Source: a virus
Direction: 5' to 3' (one strand)
Virus record (IMG/VR): IMGVR_UViG_3300020165_000005
Location: 1-22,780 of that record
Length of the DNA stretch: 22,780 nt
The translations under genes were made by a program, and so were the position numbers. Below, piece after piece: positions 2,072 to 22,780 of the stretch; within the stretch, counting starts at the first letter, position 1, and every line of letters starts with the position of its first letter. The notes below the pieces were generated by a model. That model saw only the letters and a program-made list of their open reading frames with translations. It was not told where the DNA came from and did not search any database.

Positions 2072-2597
2072 TTTGGAGTTGGATTAGTGCCCTTTGCTCA
2101 CTTTTGGGCGATTTGTAGGTAAATCGGTGATCTGTTTTCTTGTACTCCAGCCACTCAGACCATGCGGCTGTAAAGGCTTCTGTCTGCCATGGAAGTACTA
2201 TCGAAAAATTTTCCCCCTTGTTTAGTAGTGTTTTAGTAATTTGTTTAGTAAGTTGATTAGTACGTGTCCGTTTGCGCCCACCCCCCTGGCTGTTTGCACC
2301 CACCCCCCTGGCCGTTTGCGCCCACCCTAAAGTCCGTTTGTACCCACCCTGTCCGTTAGCAACCACCCCCCTATTAAGGTGGCCGCTTTGGATCAGTCTG
2401 TAAATTATCTTCCGTGTGCGGTCTTCGCTAATGCCGAGCGCCTCGGCTAGTTTGGCGTTGGTCATGAAGCACTTTTTGCCATTCTCGGCGAAGCTGGCGA
2501 CCTCAGCCAACAGAATACGATCCATAGGCGCAAGGTCTAGCGTCCAAATCTCTATCGGTATCCAAATTCCGGTTCGACTACCGTTTGCGCTTTTCAT
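1866..2597 (-). CDS. Replication initiator / replisome-organiser-like HTH protein
   Basis: From the ATG at 2597 the N-terminal segment is GIWIPIEIW..LAPMDRILLAEVASFAENGKKCFMTNAKLAEALGISEDRTRKIIYRLIQSGHL. This is the winged-helix pattern common in phage and plasmid initiators (DnaD/HTH_36-like). A Gly/basic linker is encoded by the internal DNA repeats. Confidence 0.6.
   Translation of the reverse strand: MKSANGSRTGIWIPIEIWTLDLAPMDRILLAEVASFAENGKKCFMTNAKLAEALGISEDRTRKIIYRLIQSGHLNRGVVANGQGGYKRTLGWAQTARGVGANSQGGGRKRTRTNQLTKQITKTLLNKGENFSIVLPWQTEAFTAAWSEWLEYKKTDHRFTYKSPKSEQRALIQLQNEYTNESEAIEAIHRSIANGYKGLVFKQRAGGRTNASRASNLKTDVNREQLAEFARTGRIAPDSGGVL
2222..2262. repeat. AT-rich phased TTAGT(A) repeats (candidate DNA-unwinding element)
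   Basis: TTAGT starts at 2222, 2233, 2245 and 2257, giving 11-12 bp spacing. By hand count, the roughly 42-nt stretch has 9 G and 0 C on the plus strand (about 21% GC) in a genome of roughly 50% GC. Confidence 0.5.
2270..2372. repeat. Five tandem iteron-like repeats inside the initiator gene (candidate origin)
   Basis: The five units are gtttgcgcccacccccctggc (2270), gtttgcacccacccccctggc (2292), gtttgcgcccaccctaaagtcc (2314), gtttgtacccaccctgtcc (2336) and gttagcaaccacccccct (2355). Periods are 22, 22, 22 and 19 bp. Confidence 0.6.
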
Positions 2598-2955
2598 TGA
2601 TCTGCTCAATTGTTTCGGCCACTGCGTCAAATAATTCCAACGGCTCAACCTTTTGCATGGCGACGATCTGCGTGCTGTGCTTCAATATGCCGGTTGGATT
2701 CAGTGCCATCCAGTTTTTAATGGTTCGCAGGCTCACGCCCAGGTCGTCGGCTGCGTGCTGATCACTTTCCCACTGTTGCCGTATAAACTCTCTTAGGTTC
2801 ATTGTGCTAGGTTTTAATTGGTAGCGAATCCCCTTGCTTTCGAGGTCGTCGAGGTATTTGATTGCGCTGCCATAGTTTTCGAATTTTACGCTGCTGTTAT
2901 ATGCCGGTACTTTGACGCAGTAATAAAGCCTCTCAAAATGGGAAGTTTTGGCCAT
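2578..2955 (-). CDS. Small HTH DNA-binding protein (Cro/excisionase-style helix-turn-helix in the C-terminal half)
   Basis: 125 aa from the ATG at 2955. The segment AADDLGVSLRTIKNWMALNPTG looks like a helix-turn-helix. A shorter start at the ATG at 2802 is an alternative. Overlaps the upstream gene by 23 nt. Confidence 0.5.
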   Translation of the reverse strand: MAKTSHFERLYYCVKVPAYNSSVKFENYGSAIKYLDDLESKGIRYQLKPSTMNLREFIRQQWESDQHAADDLGVSLRTIKNWMALNPTGILKHSTQIVAMQKVEPLELFDAVAETIEQINEKRKR

Positions 2956-3577
2956 CGGGTGCAGGTTGTTGGGTTTCCTTTTTTGTGTCGTCTTCAATGC
3001 TGTAATTGCGCACTACGAAGCTGCAAAATATTTTCAGCGGTCCGGGTTCAGGCAATGGGTTGCCATCTTCGTCGGTCGTCTTTTGCCATTCCCGTGTTTG
3101 GATTTTGTATTCCACCTGCATTTTTTGACCGGGATGCAATGAGATTGCTTCGTCAACCATGTCTTTAAGAAACTCCAGCGGCACAATTTGGGTATACTGG
3201 CCGTCTTTGACTTCCAAATGAATTTCGCATTTTCTAAAACCACTTGCGAACTCCATCGGTTTGTTAACTCGTTTAATAACGCCCTCGGTTGTGTGGATCA
3301 TTTTTCTAAAATTAAAGGTGATTTGATAAGATTCTGTAAATTGTGTTTGTGACCAGTTCGGCAAGTCGATTGCCCGCAACTGGTTTAATTTTAACCGCTC
3401 GAATATCTCACGCCAGCGGTTCGGCGTTGGGTTGGTGTCTATTATTTCGTCCTCTAGGCCGTCGTCGTCGTCCTTCATTGTGGACGTGCTGAGCAGCAGT
3501 AAAGCATAGTCTTTGACGTCTTCCACGTGAGCGGCTTGGTCAGCCTCCACATCGTCAAAGAAATCGTCAAGCTTCAT
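2933..3577 (-). CDS. Acidic N-terminus plus DUF3127-like OB-fold; putative ssDNA-binding protein
   Basis: 214 aa. The C-terminal half (FRKCEIHLEVKDGQYTQIVPLEFLKDMVDEAISLHPGQKMQVEYKIQTREWQ) resembles the DUF3127 pattern (..YPkk..f.lwgdkid...l..G..v.V.fdi.sREy..). The C-terminal ...NFPF is reminiscent of SSB tails. ATGA overlap with the upstream gene. Confidence 0.4.
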   Translation of the reverse strand: MKLDDFFDDVEADQAAHVEDVKDYALLLLSTSTMKDDDDGLEDEIIDTNPTPNRWREIFERLKLNQLRAIDLPNWSQTQFTESYQITFNFRKMIHTTEGVIKRVNKPMEFASGFRKCEIHLEVKDGQYTQIVPLEFLKDMVDEAISLHPGQKMQVEYKIQTREWQKTTDEDGNPLPEPGPLKIFCSFVVRNYSIEDDTKKETQQPAPDGQNFPF

Positions 3578-4185
3578 AAGCTTGCGATGATTTCACTACA
3601 AAGGTCTGCCGGTATTTTGCTGCGCTCATAGTTGTTTTTTAACCCCTGTGTTCCTGTGCGCGATCCGCGTGGTGCGGCTTCATGGCATGGTGCGCCATTT
3701 TTGCACATTGGTCGAGGTTGCCAAGTTTTGGAGTTCGTCCATATATCTGTCGGCTTCATGCGCGTATCACCATATTGGCAGTAGGTCACCGTATGCCGCT
3801 GCATTCCTTGCAACTCCGGCATTTTACGCATAAGACCTCTTGGATTCTCAATAAACCAAACGGCTGGATTAATTTCCTGTATGATTCGCAGCGTTTCACG
3901 TAGCAATTGTATGCCAAGCTTTGCCGTTTCCGTCTTTGGAATATACGCGCCAGCGCCACCAGTCCAATGGTGCCCAATAGCCGCAACACTGAATCCGGTA
4001 CACGGTGGAGATGCCCAAACTACATTGGGCTTAAACGGCACAAAACTGAGGTCAAACATCAATACATCACAAACGTAGTCGATGCCATCAAAATCATTCA
4101 GGTCTGTGCTAAAAACCTCATGACCTTGGCGCTCTGCCGCTTTGCCAATTGATCTGCTACCTGCAAATAATTCAAGTATGTTCAT
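3574..4185 (-). CDS. DNA (cytosine-5)-methyltransferase, unusually short (203 aa), orphan
   Basis: Motif I ELFAGSRS, motif IV SPPCTGFS (catalytic Pro-Cys), motif VI ENPRG, and QRH further on. No adjacent restriction endonuclease gene. Confidence 0.8.
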   Translation of the reverse strand: MNILELFAGSRSIGKAAERQGHEVFSTDLNDFDGIDYVCDVLMFDLSFVPFKPNVVWASPPCTGFSVAAIGHHWTGGAGAYIPKTETAKLGIQLLRETLRIIQEINPAVWFIENPRGLMRKMPELQGMQRHTVTYCQYGDTRMKPTDIWTNSKTWQPRPMCKNGAPCHEAAPRGSRTGTQGLKNNYERSKIPADLCSEIIASL

Positions 4186-4556
4186 TCGTCTATTTCGTCT
4201 TCGCCGTAAACGCCAGCAGTGTAAAAACCTGCGAGCTTCAAAATAGCACGCGATAAGGCGCGTTTTTCCGCCATGGCAATCGGGTACGCATTTCGGTTAT
4301 TTGCTTTGCTCGCCTCGCCATACGTTTCTACCTTGCCTATTTCGCATTTTGCGTACGCTTTAATGCAGTATTTTCCCTCTTTGGAGTCTGAGTATTCCGG
4401 CACGGTAGAAAATCGAACCTCGGCCTTTATTTTGGCTTGTAAGTGTTCGACGCCTCGGCGCGTCATAATGACAAAGCCGCGCGGATCTTTGTGGAAGTGA
4501 TCCGGATGCATATCGTATTTTGCCGATAGCGCCCTTAATTCGTCGGTGTTATTCAT
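4182..4556 (-). CDS. Hypothetical protein (124 aa), replication/recombination module
   Basis: ORF with ATGA overlaps at both ends. The segment YGEAS..N...YPIAMAEKRALSRAILKLAGFY..GVYGEDE faintly recalls the helix of Rad52-type annealing proteins. I cannot support that assignment. Confidence 0.6.
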   Translation of the reverse strand: MNNTDELRALSAKYDMHPDHFHKDPRGFVIMTRRGVEHLQAKIKAEVRFSTVPEYSDSKEGKYCIKAYAKCEIGKVETYGEASKANNRNAYPIAMAEKRALSRAILKLAGFYTAGVYGEDEIDE

Positions 4557-5077
4557 TGCTCAAAGGTTAAAGGTGTAACGTCGTAATTGATGAATGGCGC
4601 ATATCCGGATGCGAATCGCAAGCTGCTAAGGTTGTTTGACACGGGCACATCTACCACCACGTTAAATTGTTCCTCAATTAGATCCATGACGCGGCTGGCT
4701 TTCTCTCGGTGATTGGTTTCGTTTATGCCGTCAACTGCGACCAGCATATAAACGCCTTCGCCCATGCAGCTAATGCCACCAGCCACCACGTACGGCGCGG
4801 CTTCCATATCGCGCACCACGTTCTCCGGATTAAATCCAGCGCTTTGGTGCTTGCCGTCTATGTCAATCTGCACTAGCCCGCTATGCGTTAGGATCGAATC
4901 CTGCCTTCGGTTGTAAAATACACCGTGCGGCATAATCGCAGGCAGTTGTTTCTTATTAAAGTCGTTAAGCATCACATCCGGTCGCACGTGTTCGAGCCAT
5001 TCGATGAGGTAAACCATTCGCGTATCGCGAGAGAATGCGCCACGGCAGGAGCTGACTTGTATTGTTTCGATATTCAT
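4553..5077 (-). CDS. BT4734/VirE-N-terminal-like domain protein (putative primase-type domain), stand-alone
   Basis: 174 aa. The pattern KKQLPAIMPHGVF..RR.DSILTHSGLVQIDID ... SCMGEGVYML ... LSSLRFASGYAPFINYD matches the BT4734-like N-terminal domain as I recall it (LP.i.p.G.F..R ... SGl..lDiD ... S.sG.G ... R..S.D). Confidence 0.55.
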   Translation of the reverse strand: MNIETIQVSSCRGAFSRDTRMVYLIEWLEHVRPDVMLNDFNKKQLPAIMPHGVFYNRRQDSILTHSGLVQIDIDGKHQSAGFNPENVVRDMEAAPYVVAGGISCMGEGVYMLVAVDGINETNHREKASRVMDLIEEQFNVVVDVPVSNNLSSLRFASGYAPFINYDVTPLTFEQ

Positions 5078-5223
5078 CGTTCTCGGTTTTGCTTAAGGTG
5101 CATCTTCATTTTGTCAATCAGGCGAATAAACTCGCGTTCCTCGGCTAGGTCTTGCTGCCACTGGTTGAATGACTGCGGGGCTGTTACTTGTACGCTGCTG
5201 CGCACGCAAATAGGTCTTTTCAT
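5074..5223 (-). CDS. Small hypothetical protein (49 aa)
   Basis: MKRPICVRSSVQVTAPQSFNQWQQDLAEEREFIRLIDKMKMHLKQNRER. ATGA overlaps at both ends (5220-5223 and 5074-5077). Confidence 0.5.
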   Translation of the reverse strand: MKRPICVRSSVQVTAPQSFNQWQQDLAEEREFIRLIDKMKMHLKQNRER

Positions 5224-5333
5224 TGGTCTAGGGTTTGATCTTGTTGTTTGTCGTGTTGTTCGTCGGCCTCTTCGTAGTAGTCGCGGCCTTCGTCTTCGTC
5301 GTCTGCTGGGTAGTCGTATCCTTCGCGCCACAT
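5220..5333 (-). CDS. Small, very acidic hypothetical protein (37 aa)
   Basis: The ATG at 5333 opens MWREGYDYPADDEDEGRDYYEEADEQHDKQQDQTLDQ. It uses GAC/GAA codons and ends in an ATGA overlap with the next ORF. It competes with the Arg-rich GTG-started frame in the ORF track. Confidence 0.4.
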   Translation of the reverse strand: MWREGYDYPADDEDEGRDYYEEADEQHDKQQDQTLDQ

Positions 5334-5336
5334 GGT

Positions 5337-5367
5337 AAAAAAATAAAGCCCCGCCCGAAGGCAGGGC
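5337..5367 (-). terminator. Rho-independent terminator/attenuator after the 74-aa gene
   Basis: Minus-strand RNA GCCCUGCC-UUCG-GGCGGGGC (8 bp including one G.U pair, UUCG loop), followed by UUUAUUUUUUU. Confidence 0.7.
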
Positions 5368-5374
5368 ATTGGGT

Positions 5375-5599
5375 TTACTTCTGCCTATTCAATAACGTTT
5401 GGCACGCAGCTTGACAGCTCTCAAGGCTGTTGAATCCTTTATTCTCGTAAACCTCATCAAGCTCGCTGTTTACATTCCTTGAAACTCTCCACACGTTGCA
5501 AGCGTTGTGAAAAAATGGGATAAAGCTTATATTCTCTCCGTAGATGTTTGTAAAATCCTGTGCGTTTGTCATGGCGTTGGTGTTTTGTTCGTTGTTCAT
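5375..5599 (-). CDS. Hypothetical 74-aa protein in a terminator-bracketed, low-GC cassette (moron-like or first early gene)
   Basis: MNNEQNTNAMTNAQDF...FHNACNVWRV...ESCQAACQTLLNRQK. About 41% GC by hand count. The start is trimmed to the ATG at 5599 because the upstream extension runs through the promoter/operator repeats. Confidence 0.55.
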   Translation of the reverse strand: MNNEQNTNAMTNAQDFTNIYGENISFIPFFHNACNVWRVSRNVNSELDEVYENKGFNSLESCQAACQTLLNRQK

Positions 5600-5605
5600 A
5601 AGGCG

Positions 5606-5646
5606 AATATAATGCAACTTTCTGCATCTGTGCAACTTTCTGCATC
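5606..5646 (-). promoter_or_regulatory. Promoter-like region overlaid by two perfect 16-bp direct repeats (operator candidates)
   Basis: TGCAACTTTCTGCATC occurs at 5613-5628 and 5631-5646. On the coding strand there is TTGCAC (5635-5630), an 18-nt spacer, then TATATT (5611-5606). TATATTCG is also a one-mismatch match to the Bacteroidota -7 box TAnnTTTG. Confidence 0.45.
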
Positions 5647-5661
5647 TTTTTTATTGGGCAC

Positions 5662-5688
5662 AAAAAAAGGCCCCCACGTTTGGAGGCC
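5662..5688 (-). terminator. Rho-independent terminator ending the structural/lysis operon
   Basis: Minus-strand RNA GGCCUCCA-AACG-UGGGGGCC (8 bp including one G.U pair), followed by UUUUUUU. The same position is a C.A mismatch on the plus strand, so the hairpin is better on the minus strand. Confidence 0.75.
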
Positions 5689-5739
5689 CCTTCATTTTTT
5701 TAACAGGGATAAATCCCACAATTCTAAACCGTGACAAAT

Positions 5740-5913
5740 CTACGACTTATTCCGCCGCTTTGTACGTCCTAGAACAATCGCGTTAATGATCCGCTTTAAT
5801 ACGTCTACGATTTTATCGTCCTTTTCCGTTTCGGTAAGTGCGGTAACTGTGCCCGCTGCTGTCAAGATCGCCAGTGCAATCTCAGACCAATACATTTTTG
5901 CAAGTTCTAACAT
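5740..5913 (-). CDS. Small membrane protein (57 aa), holin-like; below the ORF-track size cutoff
   Basis: MLELAKMYWSEIALAILTAAGTVTALTETEKDDKIVDVLKRIINAIVLGRTKRRNKS. One hydrophobic helix, then an amphipathic segment and a basic tail. ATG at 5913, TAG at 5740-5742, 22 nt after the upstream stop. Confidence 0.5.
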   Translation of the reverse strand: MLELAKMYWSEIALAILTAAGTVTALTETEKDDKIVDVLKRIINAIVLGRTKRRNKS

Positions 5914-5935
5914 GGTTCAAATGTACGCAAAAGGG

Positions 5936-6649
5936 TCAAAGCGGCATTAGGCAATTGATCGCAGTATGCCCACCAATTACCACGCCGCAACCTATTGCCT
6001 GCTTTTTATAGTGCTTGGCATATGCCGCCGCGTACGTTTCGCGGTCGAGGCCGCAACCTACTTGCATACCAAATAACTTAGTTCGATTGCCAACCATCCA
6101 TTCCACATAAGCCTGTGTGTGTATATGCCCCTGCACCGTGCTTTGTAGGTCGTTCTTTGCCTTTGTGCGGGCTGTTCCGCCTTCGCCATGCACGTACTGC
6201 ACGCCATCGTACTCTATGCGCTCTGTCCAGTTCCAAGACGTACCCAACACTTCGTTGAATGACTTAATCCAAACGCTGGGAATGGATGAACTGAACGCCC
6301 TGCGCATTACTACGCGGTCATGATTTCCGATAATGCAATCGGCCACGGGAAATGCTATCCGCCATTTTTGCAGGTCTTCAATTGCACGCTCCAGTTCCGT
6401 CTTTGCGCTTTCTCCGTCCGGATCAGTTTCGTGCCTGCTGGTGGCGTGCGAGTCGACGAGGTCACCGATGAAGGTTACTTGATTGCACGCGTACTTATCG
6501 TAGGTTTCAAGGCAAAACTCAAAATATCCTTCTTTCTCAAAGGGGCAATGCAGATCACCAATGACCAGAATACGCCGCTCTTTGTTGCGTAGGAAATCCA
6601 GCGCTTTCTTTTGCTGGGCTGTGACTCGCGGGCGTATCGTGTTAATCAT
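5936..6649 (-). CDS. Calcineurin-like metallophosphoesterase
   Basis: Motif series GDLHCPF, GDLVD, GNHD, VHGEGG, QGHIH. The start overlaps the endolysin stop by 8 nt. Confidence 0.8.
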   Translation of the reverse strand: MINTIRPRVTAQQKKALDFLRNKERRILVIGDLHCPFEKEGYFEFCLETYDKYACNQVTFIGDLVDSHATSRHETDPDGESAKTELERAIEDLQKWRIAFPVADCIIGNHDRVVMRRAFSSSIPSVWIKSFNEVLGTSWNWTERIEYDGVQYVHGEGGTARTKAKNDLQSTVQGHIHTQAYVEWMVGNRTKLFGMQVGCGLDRETYAAAYAKHYKKQAIGCGVVIGGHTAINCLMPL

Positions 6650-7025
6650 ATAACCAAACTACGTCCTCCGTTTTTCCGTCATCGTCGTCCACATGGATAA
6701 AGGTGCGGCCTATGCCTATGCGGTTGAATCCCGCGTCATAAAGTGCGCCCAGGATATAACCCCGTGTGCGTTCATCTGGGCAGCTAATATCAGCCGCCAA
6801 GCCTTTTAAATGTGAACTGCTTTTTTTCCCTCCAACAGCTCGGTTGTGAGAGCTGCACCGAACGCCCGACGTTATAACAAAGCTCACGCCCGCTTTGTGG
6901 CGTGCGTCGTCTAGCATCAACAAAAAATCCAAATCCATCACGTCAATACCAAGGCCGTCAGAATGAGCGCGGCATTTCTTGCACTTGCAATCGAATTCTT
7001 CGTATCTAAAATACCTCAGTTCCAT
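6642..7025 (-). CDS. Endolysin, peptidase M15 (zinc D-Ala-D-Ala carboxypeptidase-like / L-Ala-D-Glu peptidase type)
   Basis: 127 aa. The segment SGVRCSSHNRAVGGKKSSSHLKGLAADI ... FIHVDDD gives the H..D..H zinc-ligand pattern of M15 phage lysins. Confidence 0.85.
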   Translation of the reverse strand: MELRYFRYEEFDCKCKKCRAHSDGLGIDVMDLDFLLMLDDARHKAGVSFVITSGVRCSSHNRAVGGKKSSSHLKGLAADISCPDERTRGYILGALYDAGFNRIGIGRTFIHVDDDDGKTEDVVWLYD

Positions 7026-17502: not shown

Positions 17503-17519
17503 GTCGCTAAAATACGGAC

Positions 17520-17546
17520 AAAAAAAAGAGGGGCCGAAGCCCCTCC
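17520..17546 (-). terminator. Rho-independent terminator just after the capsid gene
   Basis: Minus-strand RNA GAGGGGC-UUCG-GCCCCUC (perfect 7-bp stem, UUCG loop), followed by a run of nine U. It begins 26 nt after the capsid gene stop codon. Confidence 0.8.
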
Positions 17547-17571
17547 TTTCCAAACAAATAACCCAACCAAA

Positions 17572-22378: not shown

Positions 22379-22751
22379 CTTTAAAAGTTAGGAGCTGCTC
22401 AAGTTCGTCGTCCATTTCAACCTCGACTTCGATGCGCTTCCTTGCCGCTGGTGTCATACCTAACTCCTTCAGCACTACCAAATATTTGGATCGTGACTCA
22501 ACTAACATTTGATGCTCAGGCCGGTGCTTCGTCATCGTGCCGCCGTCACGGTTTTTGAATTCGTAGGTGTAACCTTTTTCGTCAATCAGGCTTTGCAGTT
22601 CTCGAACCTCAACCGCTAGGCAGGCCGCCATTGTTAAAAGGTCTTCATCTAATTCGCCAATGTGTCGAGCGCTGCGCAGTGCGTTTTTTATGCGCTTGTA
22701 TTCAAGCTTTTGCGTCTTTGTCAGTACGTCCATGCTCAAAGGTAGCGCCAA
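22371..22751 (-). CDS. terS: Terminase small subunit (P27 family); start is either TTG at 22751 or ATG at 22733
   Basis: 126 aa. The segment ...LDEDLLTMAACLAVEVRELQSLIDEKGYTYEF...HRPEHQMLVESRSKYLVVLKELGMTPAARKRI matches the ELGLTPaaR tail of that family. The 5' end lies inside the terminal repeat. Confidence 0.8.
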   Translation of the reverse strand: MALPLSMDVLTKTQKLEYKRIKNALRSARHIGELDEDLLTMAACLAVEVRELQSLIDEKGYTYEFKNRDGGTMTKHRPEHQMLVESRSKYLVVLKELGMTPAARKRIEVEVEMDDELEQLLTFKDA

Positions 22752-22780
22752 AACCCAAAGAAAAAAATGAAATATTTCGC
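22654..22780. repeat. Terminal direct repeat, copy B (identical to 1..127)
   Basis: See copy A. The length of 127 nt equals a commonly used maximum assembler k-mer. Confidence 0.95.

Follow-up and report, generated by a model that had tools for sequence, protein, structure and literature searches.

A predicted leaderless early promoter with paired operator-like dyads precedes a hypervariable gene slot at the late/early junction of a phage genome

The stretch of DNA analysed here (the window) is positions 1-22,780 of IMG/VR virus record IMGVR_UViG_3300020165_000005. It represents a complete phage genome of 22,653 bp (22.65 kb), assembled as a circle: its ends share an exact 127-bp overlap (1-127 = 22654-22780), and their adjacency is confirmed by a related locus, L029. 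The minus strand carries all credible genes of the window. We describe the junction between its late and early genes (5604-5688), the 74-amino-acid (74-aa) gene that follows it, and a small helix-turn-helix (HTH) protein encoded ~2.8 kb and eight genes further downstream. In the direction of transcription, the features are as follows.

5662..5688, minus strand: terminator-like hairpin ending the late/lysis unit; stem GGCCTCCA (5688-5681), loop AACG, TGGGGGCC (5676-5669), T7 (5668-5662).
5631..5646, minus strand: distal putative operator dyad GATGCAGAAAGTTGCA, at about -47 to -32; a perfect repeat that contains the -33 TTG and covaries with the HTH recognition helix.
5613..5628, minus strand: proximal putative operator dyad GATGCAGAAAGTTGCA, at about -29 to -14, occupying the spacer that separates the -7 element from the -33 element.
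5604..5611, minus strand: -7 box TATATTCG, matching TAnnTTTG at 7 of 8 positions; the predicted start is the A of ATG 5599.
5375..5599, minus strand: 74-aa cargo gene (family C05) in a hypervariable slot; ATG at 5599, stop at 5377-5375.
5337..5367, minus strand: slot-boundary hairpin GCCCTGCC-TTCG-GGCGGGGC (5367-5348), then TTTATTTTTTT (5347-5337), ACC and ATG 5333.
5220..5333, minus strand: first conserved early gene, for a 37-aa highly acidic peptide (MWREGYDYPADDEDE..., MWREGYDYPADDEDEGRDYYEEADEQ...; cluster C01, 39 loci).
2578..2802, minus strand: 74-aa Cro-like HTH protein, predicted autorepressor, with recognition helix S24-L-R-T-I-K-N-W31, as placed by an AlphaFold2 (AF2) model and by covariation.

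Much of what follows rests on comparison with relatives, which were collected as marine-metagenome contigs carrying homologues of the 74-aa protein and by an IMG/VR scan for the 16-bp repeat and for a neighbouring 124-aa protein (~130 loci/contigs). A common layout runs through all of them: a terminator hairpin, a T-run, GTGCCC, an A-run, two tandem repeat units, a TAnnTTTG-type -7 box and an ATG. The hairpin that opens this layout in the window has an 8-bp stem and folds at -19.1 kcal/mol, and in relatives 5 of its 11 pairs are changed on both sides and still paired, a compensatory pattern. Sequence and fold agree with an earlier sequence-only reading of this DNA, which had a minus-strand hairpin with a U7 tract closing the structural/lysis operon and whose coordinates all proved right.

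The same reading had pointed out a promoter-like layout, TTGCAC, 18 nt, TATATT, and had remarked that the downstream box is one mismatch from the Bacteroidota -7 consensus TAnnTTTG with GTTG about 21 nt upstream. Both descriptions are borne out: TTGCAC lies at 5635-5630 and TATATT at 5611-5606, TATATTCG has a single mismatch, and the TTG at 5635-5633, inside the upstream repeat, is the -33 element with a 21-nt spacer to TATATTCG. This is the only intergenic match to TTG-N18-21-TAnnTTTG in the window at up to one mismatch. A scan for the sigma-70 consensus gave fewer sites than shuffled sequences and was set aside as uninformative for the organism of the window. In the relatives, boxes such as TATCTTTG, TATATTTG and TACATTTG stand at the same place, the TA-box is conserved in 59 distinct promoters, and a TTG is found 19-21 nt upstream of the box (19 nt in relatives with the second repeat type, type b, described below). 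An automatic promoter picker mis-assigned three loci (L055, L058 and L060), which were corrected by eye. The evidence fits a Bacteroidota-type (-33/-7) early promoter at 5604-5646, which we call P_E.

The distance from the box to the ATG is exactly 4 nt in 24 of the 59 promoters, the window included, and 0-3 or 5-15 nt in none; in the other 35 a leader of 16-31 nt, rich in A and C, intervenes. The start site in Flavobacterium johnsoniae is 4-5 nt past the -7 box (PMC6847099). Because the 4-nt spacing matches this distance, the mRNA from P_E is predicted to be leaderless and to start at the A of ATG 5599. The prediction is well, if indirectly, supported by the 24 promoters with 4-nt spacing, as is the earlier suggestion of a leaderless or nearly leaderless transcript.

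The two repeats lie directly over this promoter. They are, as first described, two perfect 16-bp copies with an 18-bp period (5646-5631 and 5628-5613). Their TGCA-N6-TGCA symmetry is real but incomplete, since it belongs to a longer dyad, ATGCAr-N4-yTGCAy. Elsewhere in the genome, the 16-mer has a single match at up to three mismatches (a 3-mismatch match inside a tail gene), a count reached in 0 of 100 shuffles, and the pair is one of only three short-range direct-repeat families in the window. Searching relatives for the 16-mer, a check put forward with the sequence-only reading, found the repeats present and varying by type in step with the HTH helix. Type a, that of the window, is ATGCAr-N4-yTGCAy (ATGCAGAAAGTTGCA) and occurs in only ~8% of the loci collected through the 124-aa protein. 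Type b, the commonest type in relatives, is ACGAAA-N4-TTGCGT or, in general form, ACGmAA-N4-TTkCGT, a type-b operator being for example ACGAAATAAGTTGCGT twice; the half-sites of the two types differ mainly at position 2. Between lineages the two copies vary in step with each other against a constant -7 box and TTG, which points to a sequence-specific factor other than RNA polymerase. The likeliest reading is that a repressor binds the early promoter at these two 16-bp repeats. A role for the repeats in RNA structure was dropped, since folding yields no more than -11.7 kcal/mol and the predicted start would lie downstream of them.

A perfect palindrome that fits the type-b pattern, CGAAAGCGGCTTTCG, is found inside the DUF3127 gene of L029, L037, L007, L054, L064 and others, ~0.7-1.7 kb downstream of the 124-aa gene and even in type-a phages. 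As a possible operator it was set aside as a coincidence of coding sequence, being within a gene and absent from the window.

The 74-aa HTH protein is a candidate for the factor that binds the repeats. Its AF2 model (predicted local distance difference test score, pLDDT, 94.5) has helices at residues 3-11, 14-21, 25-33, 36-50 and 54-73, the recognition helix being residues 25-33, and the top Foldseek matches, all of them weak (TM-score 0.5-0.6, E ~1), are Cro, the TP901-1 CI protein, the C-proteins C.BclI and C.Esp1396I, HigA/Xre antitoxins, CylR2 and SinR. In relatives the protein stands alone, at 73-81 aa. The open reading frame (ORF) of the window stays open upstream to ATG 2955, and an in-frame 51-aa segment (2803-2955, MAKTSHFERLYYC...) precedes the domain; it is 92-97% conserved in L052 and L077 and absent from the stand-alone HTH genes. 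The product in the window could be either a 125-aa two-domain protein or one that starts at ATG 2802. The protein appears to be Cro-like by mode of action, not by membership of a named family.

Covariation between this protein and the repeats was assessed by aligning the C-terminal 74 residues of ORF 2578-2997 in all loci that hold both operator and HTH. Among these loci the recognition helix tracks the repeat type without exception. The helix SLRTIKNW goes with type a (5 lineages), S/T-R/H-R-T-V/I-E/V-N-Y with type b (ACGAAA; ~39 loci), SR(G/S)TLHNY with a TGTACA-type clade, and TPNTVRNW with the repeat type of L001 alone. An initial comparison by whole-ORF identity (the 139-aa ORF, the N-terminus of the replication initiator, the 57-aa gene upstream of the junction and the slot gene) had looked negative and was given up; the 139-aa ORF is a mosaic, and within it the operator is tracked by the C-terminal HTH domain alone.

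The contrast between types a and b is seen in phages that are otherwise close. Over the early region L052 and L077 share 90-98% identity with the window, but only 20% in the operators and 57-63% in the HTH domain; they diverge further at a methyltransferase indel and in a generally variable part of the DUF3127 gene. Conversely, L029 is only 62-72% identical to the window in the flanks and 90% in the HTH block. In an unbiased scan of 103 blocks of 45 nt over 5950-1300 (4 type-a versus 18 type-b loci), in which a block separated the groups when every locus of the same type was closer to the window than any locus of the other type, only 2800-2666 did so; this is the N-terminal 45 residues of the HTH protein. 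As a prediction test, three further lineages with 60-70% overall identity were chosen by the HTH helix SLRTIK/RNW/YW alone, and all three carry ATGCArrAAGTTGCA twice at the early promoter. Operator and HTH gene are 2.8 kb apart, and the specificity types are nevertheless exchanged in concert. We infer that dimers of the HTH protein bind the operators. The indel is the DNA methyltransferase gene (3574-4185), which at this position is absent from nearly all relatives and is matched only in L078 (90%).

Two proteins with HTH domains had been put forward earlier as candidates for a binding test. The product of 2578-2955 covaries with the repeats; the N-terminal domain of the O-like/DnaD-like initiator (1866-2648) does not. 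The latter result bears on whether the repeats are instead replication-origin iterons bound by this initiator. The direct repeats do adjoin an A-rich tract (5647-5660), and the initiator carries an HTH_36 domain. However, there are two copies only, each with dyad symmetry, and four relatives (L052, L055, L057 and L077) are 89-95% identical to the window in the N-terminal domain of the initiator yet have type-b repeats, whereas the small Cro-like HTH does track repeat type. The initiator gene itself contains a better origin candidate, an array of direct repeats of 22 bp at 2265-2349. We consider iterons at 5613-5646 extremely unlikely.

The array itself (minus strand GGGTGGGyrCAAACrG...) consists of three overlapping 41-nt copies at 22-bp spacing, or by eye about four 22-bp units, and it is a likely replication origin, placed as in lambda.

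The positions of the dyads also raise the question of whether the HTH protein is an activator or dual controller in the style of a C-protein or of lambda CI at PRM, with the distal dyad recruiting polymerase and the proximal one repressing at higher concentration. The distal site is centred at ~-39.5, near where a class II activator would bind; the C-box layout likewise has a pair of neighbouring dyads laid over the promoter; C.BclI and C.Esp1396I are among the fold matches; and the -7 box of the window (TATATTCG) is imperfect. Against activation, the HTH gene lies ~2.8 kb inside the operon, which must therefore be transcribed a first time without an activator; the distal dyad covers the -33 TTG itself; and those fold matches are not significant. 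We regard activation as unlikely. Since the HTH protein would come from the same transcript and the dyads lie over the promoter, negative autoregulation is the simplest reading.

What lies behind the promoter differs from phage to phage. In L029, L045 and L052 the stretch corresponding to 5336-5601 (gene and hairpin) is missing and the same promoter abuts the ATG of the acidic 37-aa gene, the junction reading promoter-CCCC/CACC-ATGTGG, while L016, L030 and L037 have a different, unrelated small gene in this slot. Slot ORFs cluster into more than 30 unrelated families of 50-90 aa, with zero, one or several per genome. Unrelated cargo proteins nevertheless begin with a common peptide (MTNANNTT, MNNAQTNNT (MNNAQ) or MNNEQ) in frame with the first ATG, and one cargo family has no second Met at all; for these two reasons the first ATG is probably the one used. 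The A/C-rich stretch encoding the common N-terminus is probably part of the promoter module. In the 74-aa family, the conserved core begins after the second Met (ATG 5572).

The 74-aa gene of the window was translated as first reported, from ATG 5599 to a 74-aa product, except that we count three Cys rather than four, and Cys is not invariant in the family. Homologues with 79-92% identity occupy the same position in marine metagenomes beside different repeat types (four in all), and substitutions fall mostly at third codon positions, as expected of a gene that evolves as a protein. The family is small: a profile search of 1.84 billion proteins returned 9 representatives, none informative. Searches of Pfam and PHROGs gave no match, in keeping with the earlier failure to recognise a family, and structure prediction, which had been proposed as a check, gave an unusable AF2 model (pLDDT 50.7 with a 4-sequence alignment).

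The sequence-only reading had offered two interpretations of the locus, a classic moron (an autonomous promoter-gene-terminator insert) or the phage's master early promoter/operator. In its full form, the first holds that the promoter with its repeats, the 74-aa gene and the terminator were acquired elsewhere and inserted together between the late and early modules. In its favour, a terminator-like hairpin stands on either side of the gene, some close relatives lack the gene, and in L001 its flanking genes are different. Its GC content, reported earlier as low, is indeed the lowest of all 33 ORFs (41.3% versus 49.7% for the genome), but the GC content at third codon positions (GC3) is 54.7%, typical for the genome; the low GC together with native GC3 points to amino-acid composition (the protein is rich in Asn, Glu and Phe) rather than to foreign codon usage or DNA. 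More telling, the promoter and repeats drive conserved early genes directly where the gene is missing (L029, L045, L052), no separate promoter is recognisable downstream of the hairpin, and the occurrence of the gene behind four repeat types means that promoter and gene are not one unit. The gene thus has no promoter of its own, and the hairpin and U-tract at 5337-5367 that could serve as its own terminator also follow unrelated cargos. What survives of the moron idea is that gene and hairpin form a dispensable, replaceable unit; as an autonomous insert it is very unlikely. By these comparisons, the 74-aa gene is swappable cargo, one of at least 30 small genes found in the slot after the promoter. 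The second interpretation, a master early promoter/operator, fits, the repeat-bearing promoter being kept in relatives with or without the 74-aa gene.

One unit of the region may be more moron-like, the gene for the 57-aa membrane protein (5740-5913). Its ATG follows a perfect -7 box, TACATTTG, after exactly 4 nt (5913-5925), with no TTG at the expected distance; the strong terminator at 5662-5688 follows the gene; and two divergent alleles of it occur among relatives.

The hairpin at the far edge of the slot was also correctly described, including the U-tract that ends 3 nt before ATG 5333. A 56-nt stretch that contains it folds at -21.5 kcal/mol, with the U-tract UUUAUUUUUUU. The hairpin is identical behind unrelated cargos and invariant among close relatives; across lineages, three unrelated stem sequences occupy the position, and short 4-bp versions occur as well. 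Relatives with an empty slot lack the hairpin, and so do those in which the stop codon of the cargo runs into the following start codon (TAATG). With 3 nt from U-tract to ATG, no separate promoter is recognisable between this hairpin and the replication genes. The hairpin must therefore pass some transcription, and a partial terminator is the most economical reading; it is probably an attenuator, as had been suggested when it was proposed to gate the replication genes.

Alternatively, 5337-5367 could be a full terminator, the 74-aa gene an insulated unit, and the early operon served by a second, unregulated leaderless promoter within the U-tract (TATTTTTT-TACC-ATG 5333). The box TATTTTTT differs from TAnnTTTG at one position, as does the main box, and lies exactly 4 nt before the ATG; moreover, most relatives with cargo keep such a TA-box-like tract at this spacing. 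Yet there is no TTG 18-21 nt upstream, and on that side a GC-rich hairpin takes the place of the AT-rich -18/-28 tracts of Bacteroidota-type promoters (PMC6847099). Such a promoter would also make early regulation radically different between near-identical phages with and without cargo, and the short 4-bp hairpins of some relatives are unlikely to terminate. This second promoter seems to us quite improbable.

We therefore read the late/early junction at 5604-5688 as an early promoter, P_E, with HTH-bound dyads, swappable cargo behind it and an attenuating hairpin at the edge of the slot, and we give this reading as a whole a probability of roughly 0.7. The anatomy of the locus, its conservation, the presence, absence and replacement of cargo, and the covariation of operator and HTH are direct observations; DNA binding, the direction of regulation, transcript ends, read-through and cargo function are deduced from them. 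Host RNA polymerase would recognise the TTG (5635-5633) and TATATTCG (5611-5604) and initiate at the A of ATG 5599, so that the cargo protein would be the first made after infection. The partial terminator would keep the cargo message abundant and let enough transcription into the replication genes. Dimers of the HTH protein (2578-2802), made from the same early transcript, would occupy the two dyads as the protein accumulates and, covering the -33 TTG and the spacer, exclude polymerase, which would shut P_E by negative autoregulation.

Several points weigh against this reading. The dyads are 17-18 bp apart from centre to centre, which places dimers on different faces of the helix and is not the classic cooperative arrangement. 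The HTH fold matches are not statistically significant (E ~1), and the protein has no Pfam membership, HTH_23 alone appearing at E = 0.021 with 15.1 bits against a cutoff of 24.6. The block scan covered the early region (5950-1300), and a late-region gene could also covary. For the TGTACA clade, covariation could be explained by shared ancestry alone; only the contrast of type a with type b is free of phylogenetic confounding. Attenuation is assumed, and an efficient terminator at 5337-5367 would silence the replication genes; the U-tract TATTTTTT-TACC-ATG mimics a -7 box at leaderless spacing, albeit without a TTG and with GC-rich sequence upstream. On the side of the host, megablast of 4500-7000 found no match in cultured phages; in a tblastn search with TerL every match was below 60% identity (37-40% for those listed) and none was a named relative; and GTDB reference genomes hold no prophage copy, a query with the 124-aa protein giving two weak partial matches in unrelated taxa.

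The phage probably infects marine Bacteroidota, to judge from the BT4734-like and DUF3127 domains, the promoter type and the lack of Shine-Dalgarno sequences, none being found before any gene of the window. Transcriptional control in phages of this phylum is almost uncharted, and a leaderless early promoter could be reused there as a genetic part. The operators and the HTH protein offer a concrete candidate operator-repressor pairing with natural specificity variants, ATGCAA half-sites with SLRTIKNW and ACGCAA with SRRTVENY, a small recognition code. The slot gives a defined genomic address from which more than 30 families of small early proteins could be harvested and screened for host takeover or anti-defence, roles that are a natural guess for the cargo from its position. 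The charge pattern of the acidic 37-aa peptide invites the idea that it is a DNA mimic. If these deductions are wrong, an ordinary promoter-terminator junction is still left.

We speculate that the specificity types avoid cross-repression between co-infecting relatives. A broader and decidedly tentative idea, which we doubt more than we believe, is that the locus is a "first-strike" slot of widespread marine Bacteroidota phages, which would deliver leaderless anti-defence or takeover factors within seconds under a brake by an HTH protein like those associated with anti-CRISPRs (Aca), its types having evolved against mutual silencing by co-infecting or resident relatives.

The remainder of the genome is arranged in two blocks. 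The late side is transcribed from the small terminase through the large terminase, portal, protease/capsid and head-closure genes to the tail proteins and tape measure; after these come a possible holin, which is weakly matched, an M15 endolysin, a metallophosphoesterase and the 57-aa membrane protein, with the promoter and slot region next. The early side continues after the slot with a BT4734-like primase-N protein, the methyltransferase, the DUF3127 SSB-like protein, the small HTH, the O-like/DnaD-like initiator, NinG and HNH. No integrase was found in any ORF scanned, and a search of the whole window against Rfam returned no family.

A second leaderless promoter, this time for the late genes, probably precedes the small terminase (TerS) gene. 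A perfect -7 box, TACCTTTG, lies 3 nt before the in-frame ATG 22733 (22731-22744 (= 78-91) and 124-144), and is preceded by a hairpin and a strongly conserved motif, GCATCGCCGTAGTA; relatives keep a TAnCTTTG-like box 3-5 nt before the small terminase ATG, one of them having TACCTTTA. TerS probably starts at 22733 rather than at TTG 22751, and the GCATCGCCGTAGTA motif may mark a cos site or the binding site of a regulator. Within the late block, the single 635-aa ORF at 17572-19479 matches both a head maturation protease (residues 20-241) and a major head protein (24-632) and looks like a fused protease-capsid gene. Just past it, at 17519-17552, a strong hairpin with T8 (GGAGGGGC-TTCG-GCCCCTC...) may be an internal attenuator or an mRNA-stabilising element.

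Among known systems, the regulatory part of the locus most resembles Cro at a lambdoid early promoter. As with lambda and 434 Cro at OR, a small all-helical HTH protein is encoded in the early transcript and dyads overlap the core early promoter, and, as in heteroimmune imm regions, phages that are otherwise alike have swapped operator and recognition helix as a pair and so fall into distinct specificity types. In contrast to the lambdoid case, the scanned ORFs revealed neither a CI partner nor an integrase nor a divergent promoter, there are two operators rather than three, at 17-18-bp spacing, and the operator and HTH gene are 2.8 kb apart instead of adjacent. The promoter, moreover, is of the Bacteroidota -33/-7 kind and predicted to be leaderless, and the HTH belongs to no sequence family.

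The C-proteins of restriction-modification systems are small Xre-type HTH dimers that act at C-boxes, two adjacent dyads over their own promoter, an arrangement predicted here as well. In contrast to those systems, no adjacent restriction-modification pair is under control, the matches to C.BclI and C.Esp1396I fall short of significance, and the typical activation step of C-proteins is not indicated.

Operons of anti-CRISPR genes and their associated regulators (Acr-Aca; PMC6765145, PMC9410906) likewise combine a strong early promoter, two repeats and a phage HTH autorepressor (the last predicted here), with variable small genes of unknown fold expressed first and a conserved HTH gene downstream in the same operon. 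In our phage, however, the HTH gene lies ~2.8 kb and eight genes downstream rather than immediately adjacent in a short operon, and the promoter drives the whole early/replication operon rather than a small acr-aca operon. The cargo would resemble Acr genes in its position.

Lastly, in the promoter-early stem-loop (PeSL) cassettes of T4-type phages (PMC2839356, PMC4122927), a terminator stem-loop and an early promoter border small, non-essential, variable ORFs, and conserved regulatory flanks appear to be sites of gene swapping, as in the slot described here. PeSLs, however, are many dispersed copies that recombine with one another, whereas this locus has a single promoter with a separate hairpin at the other edge, and its common 5' flank extends into the coding region as an N-terminal peptide. 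What sets the locus apart from the lambdoid, Acr-Aca and PeSL systems is the type of promoter, its predicted leaderless start, the N-terminal peptide shared by cargo proteins, the way the operators are spaced and how far they lie from the regulator gene.

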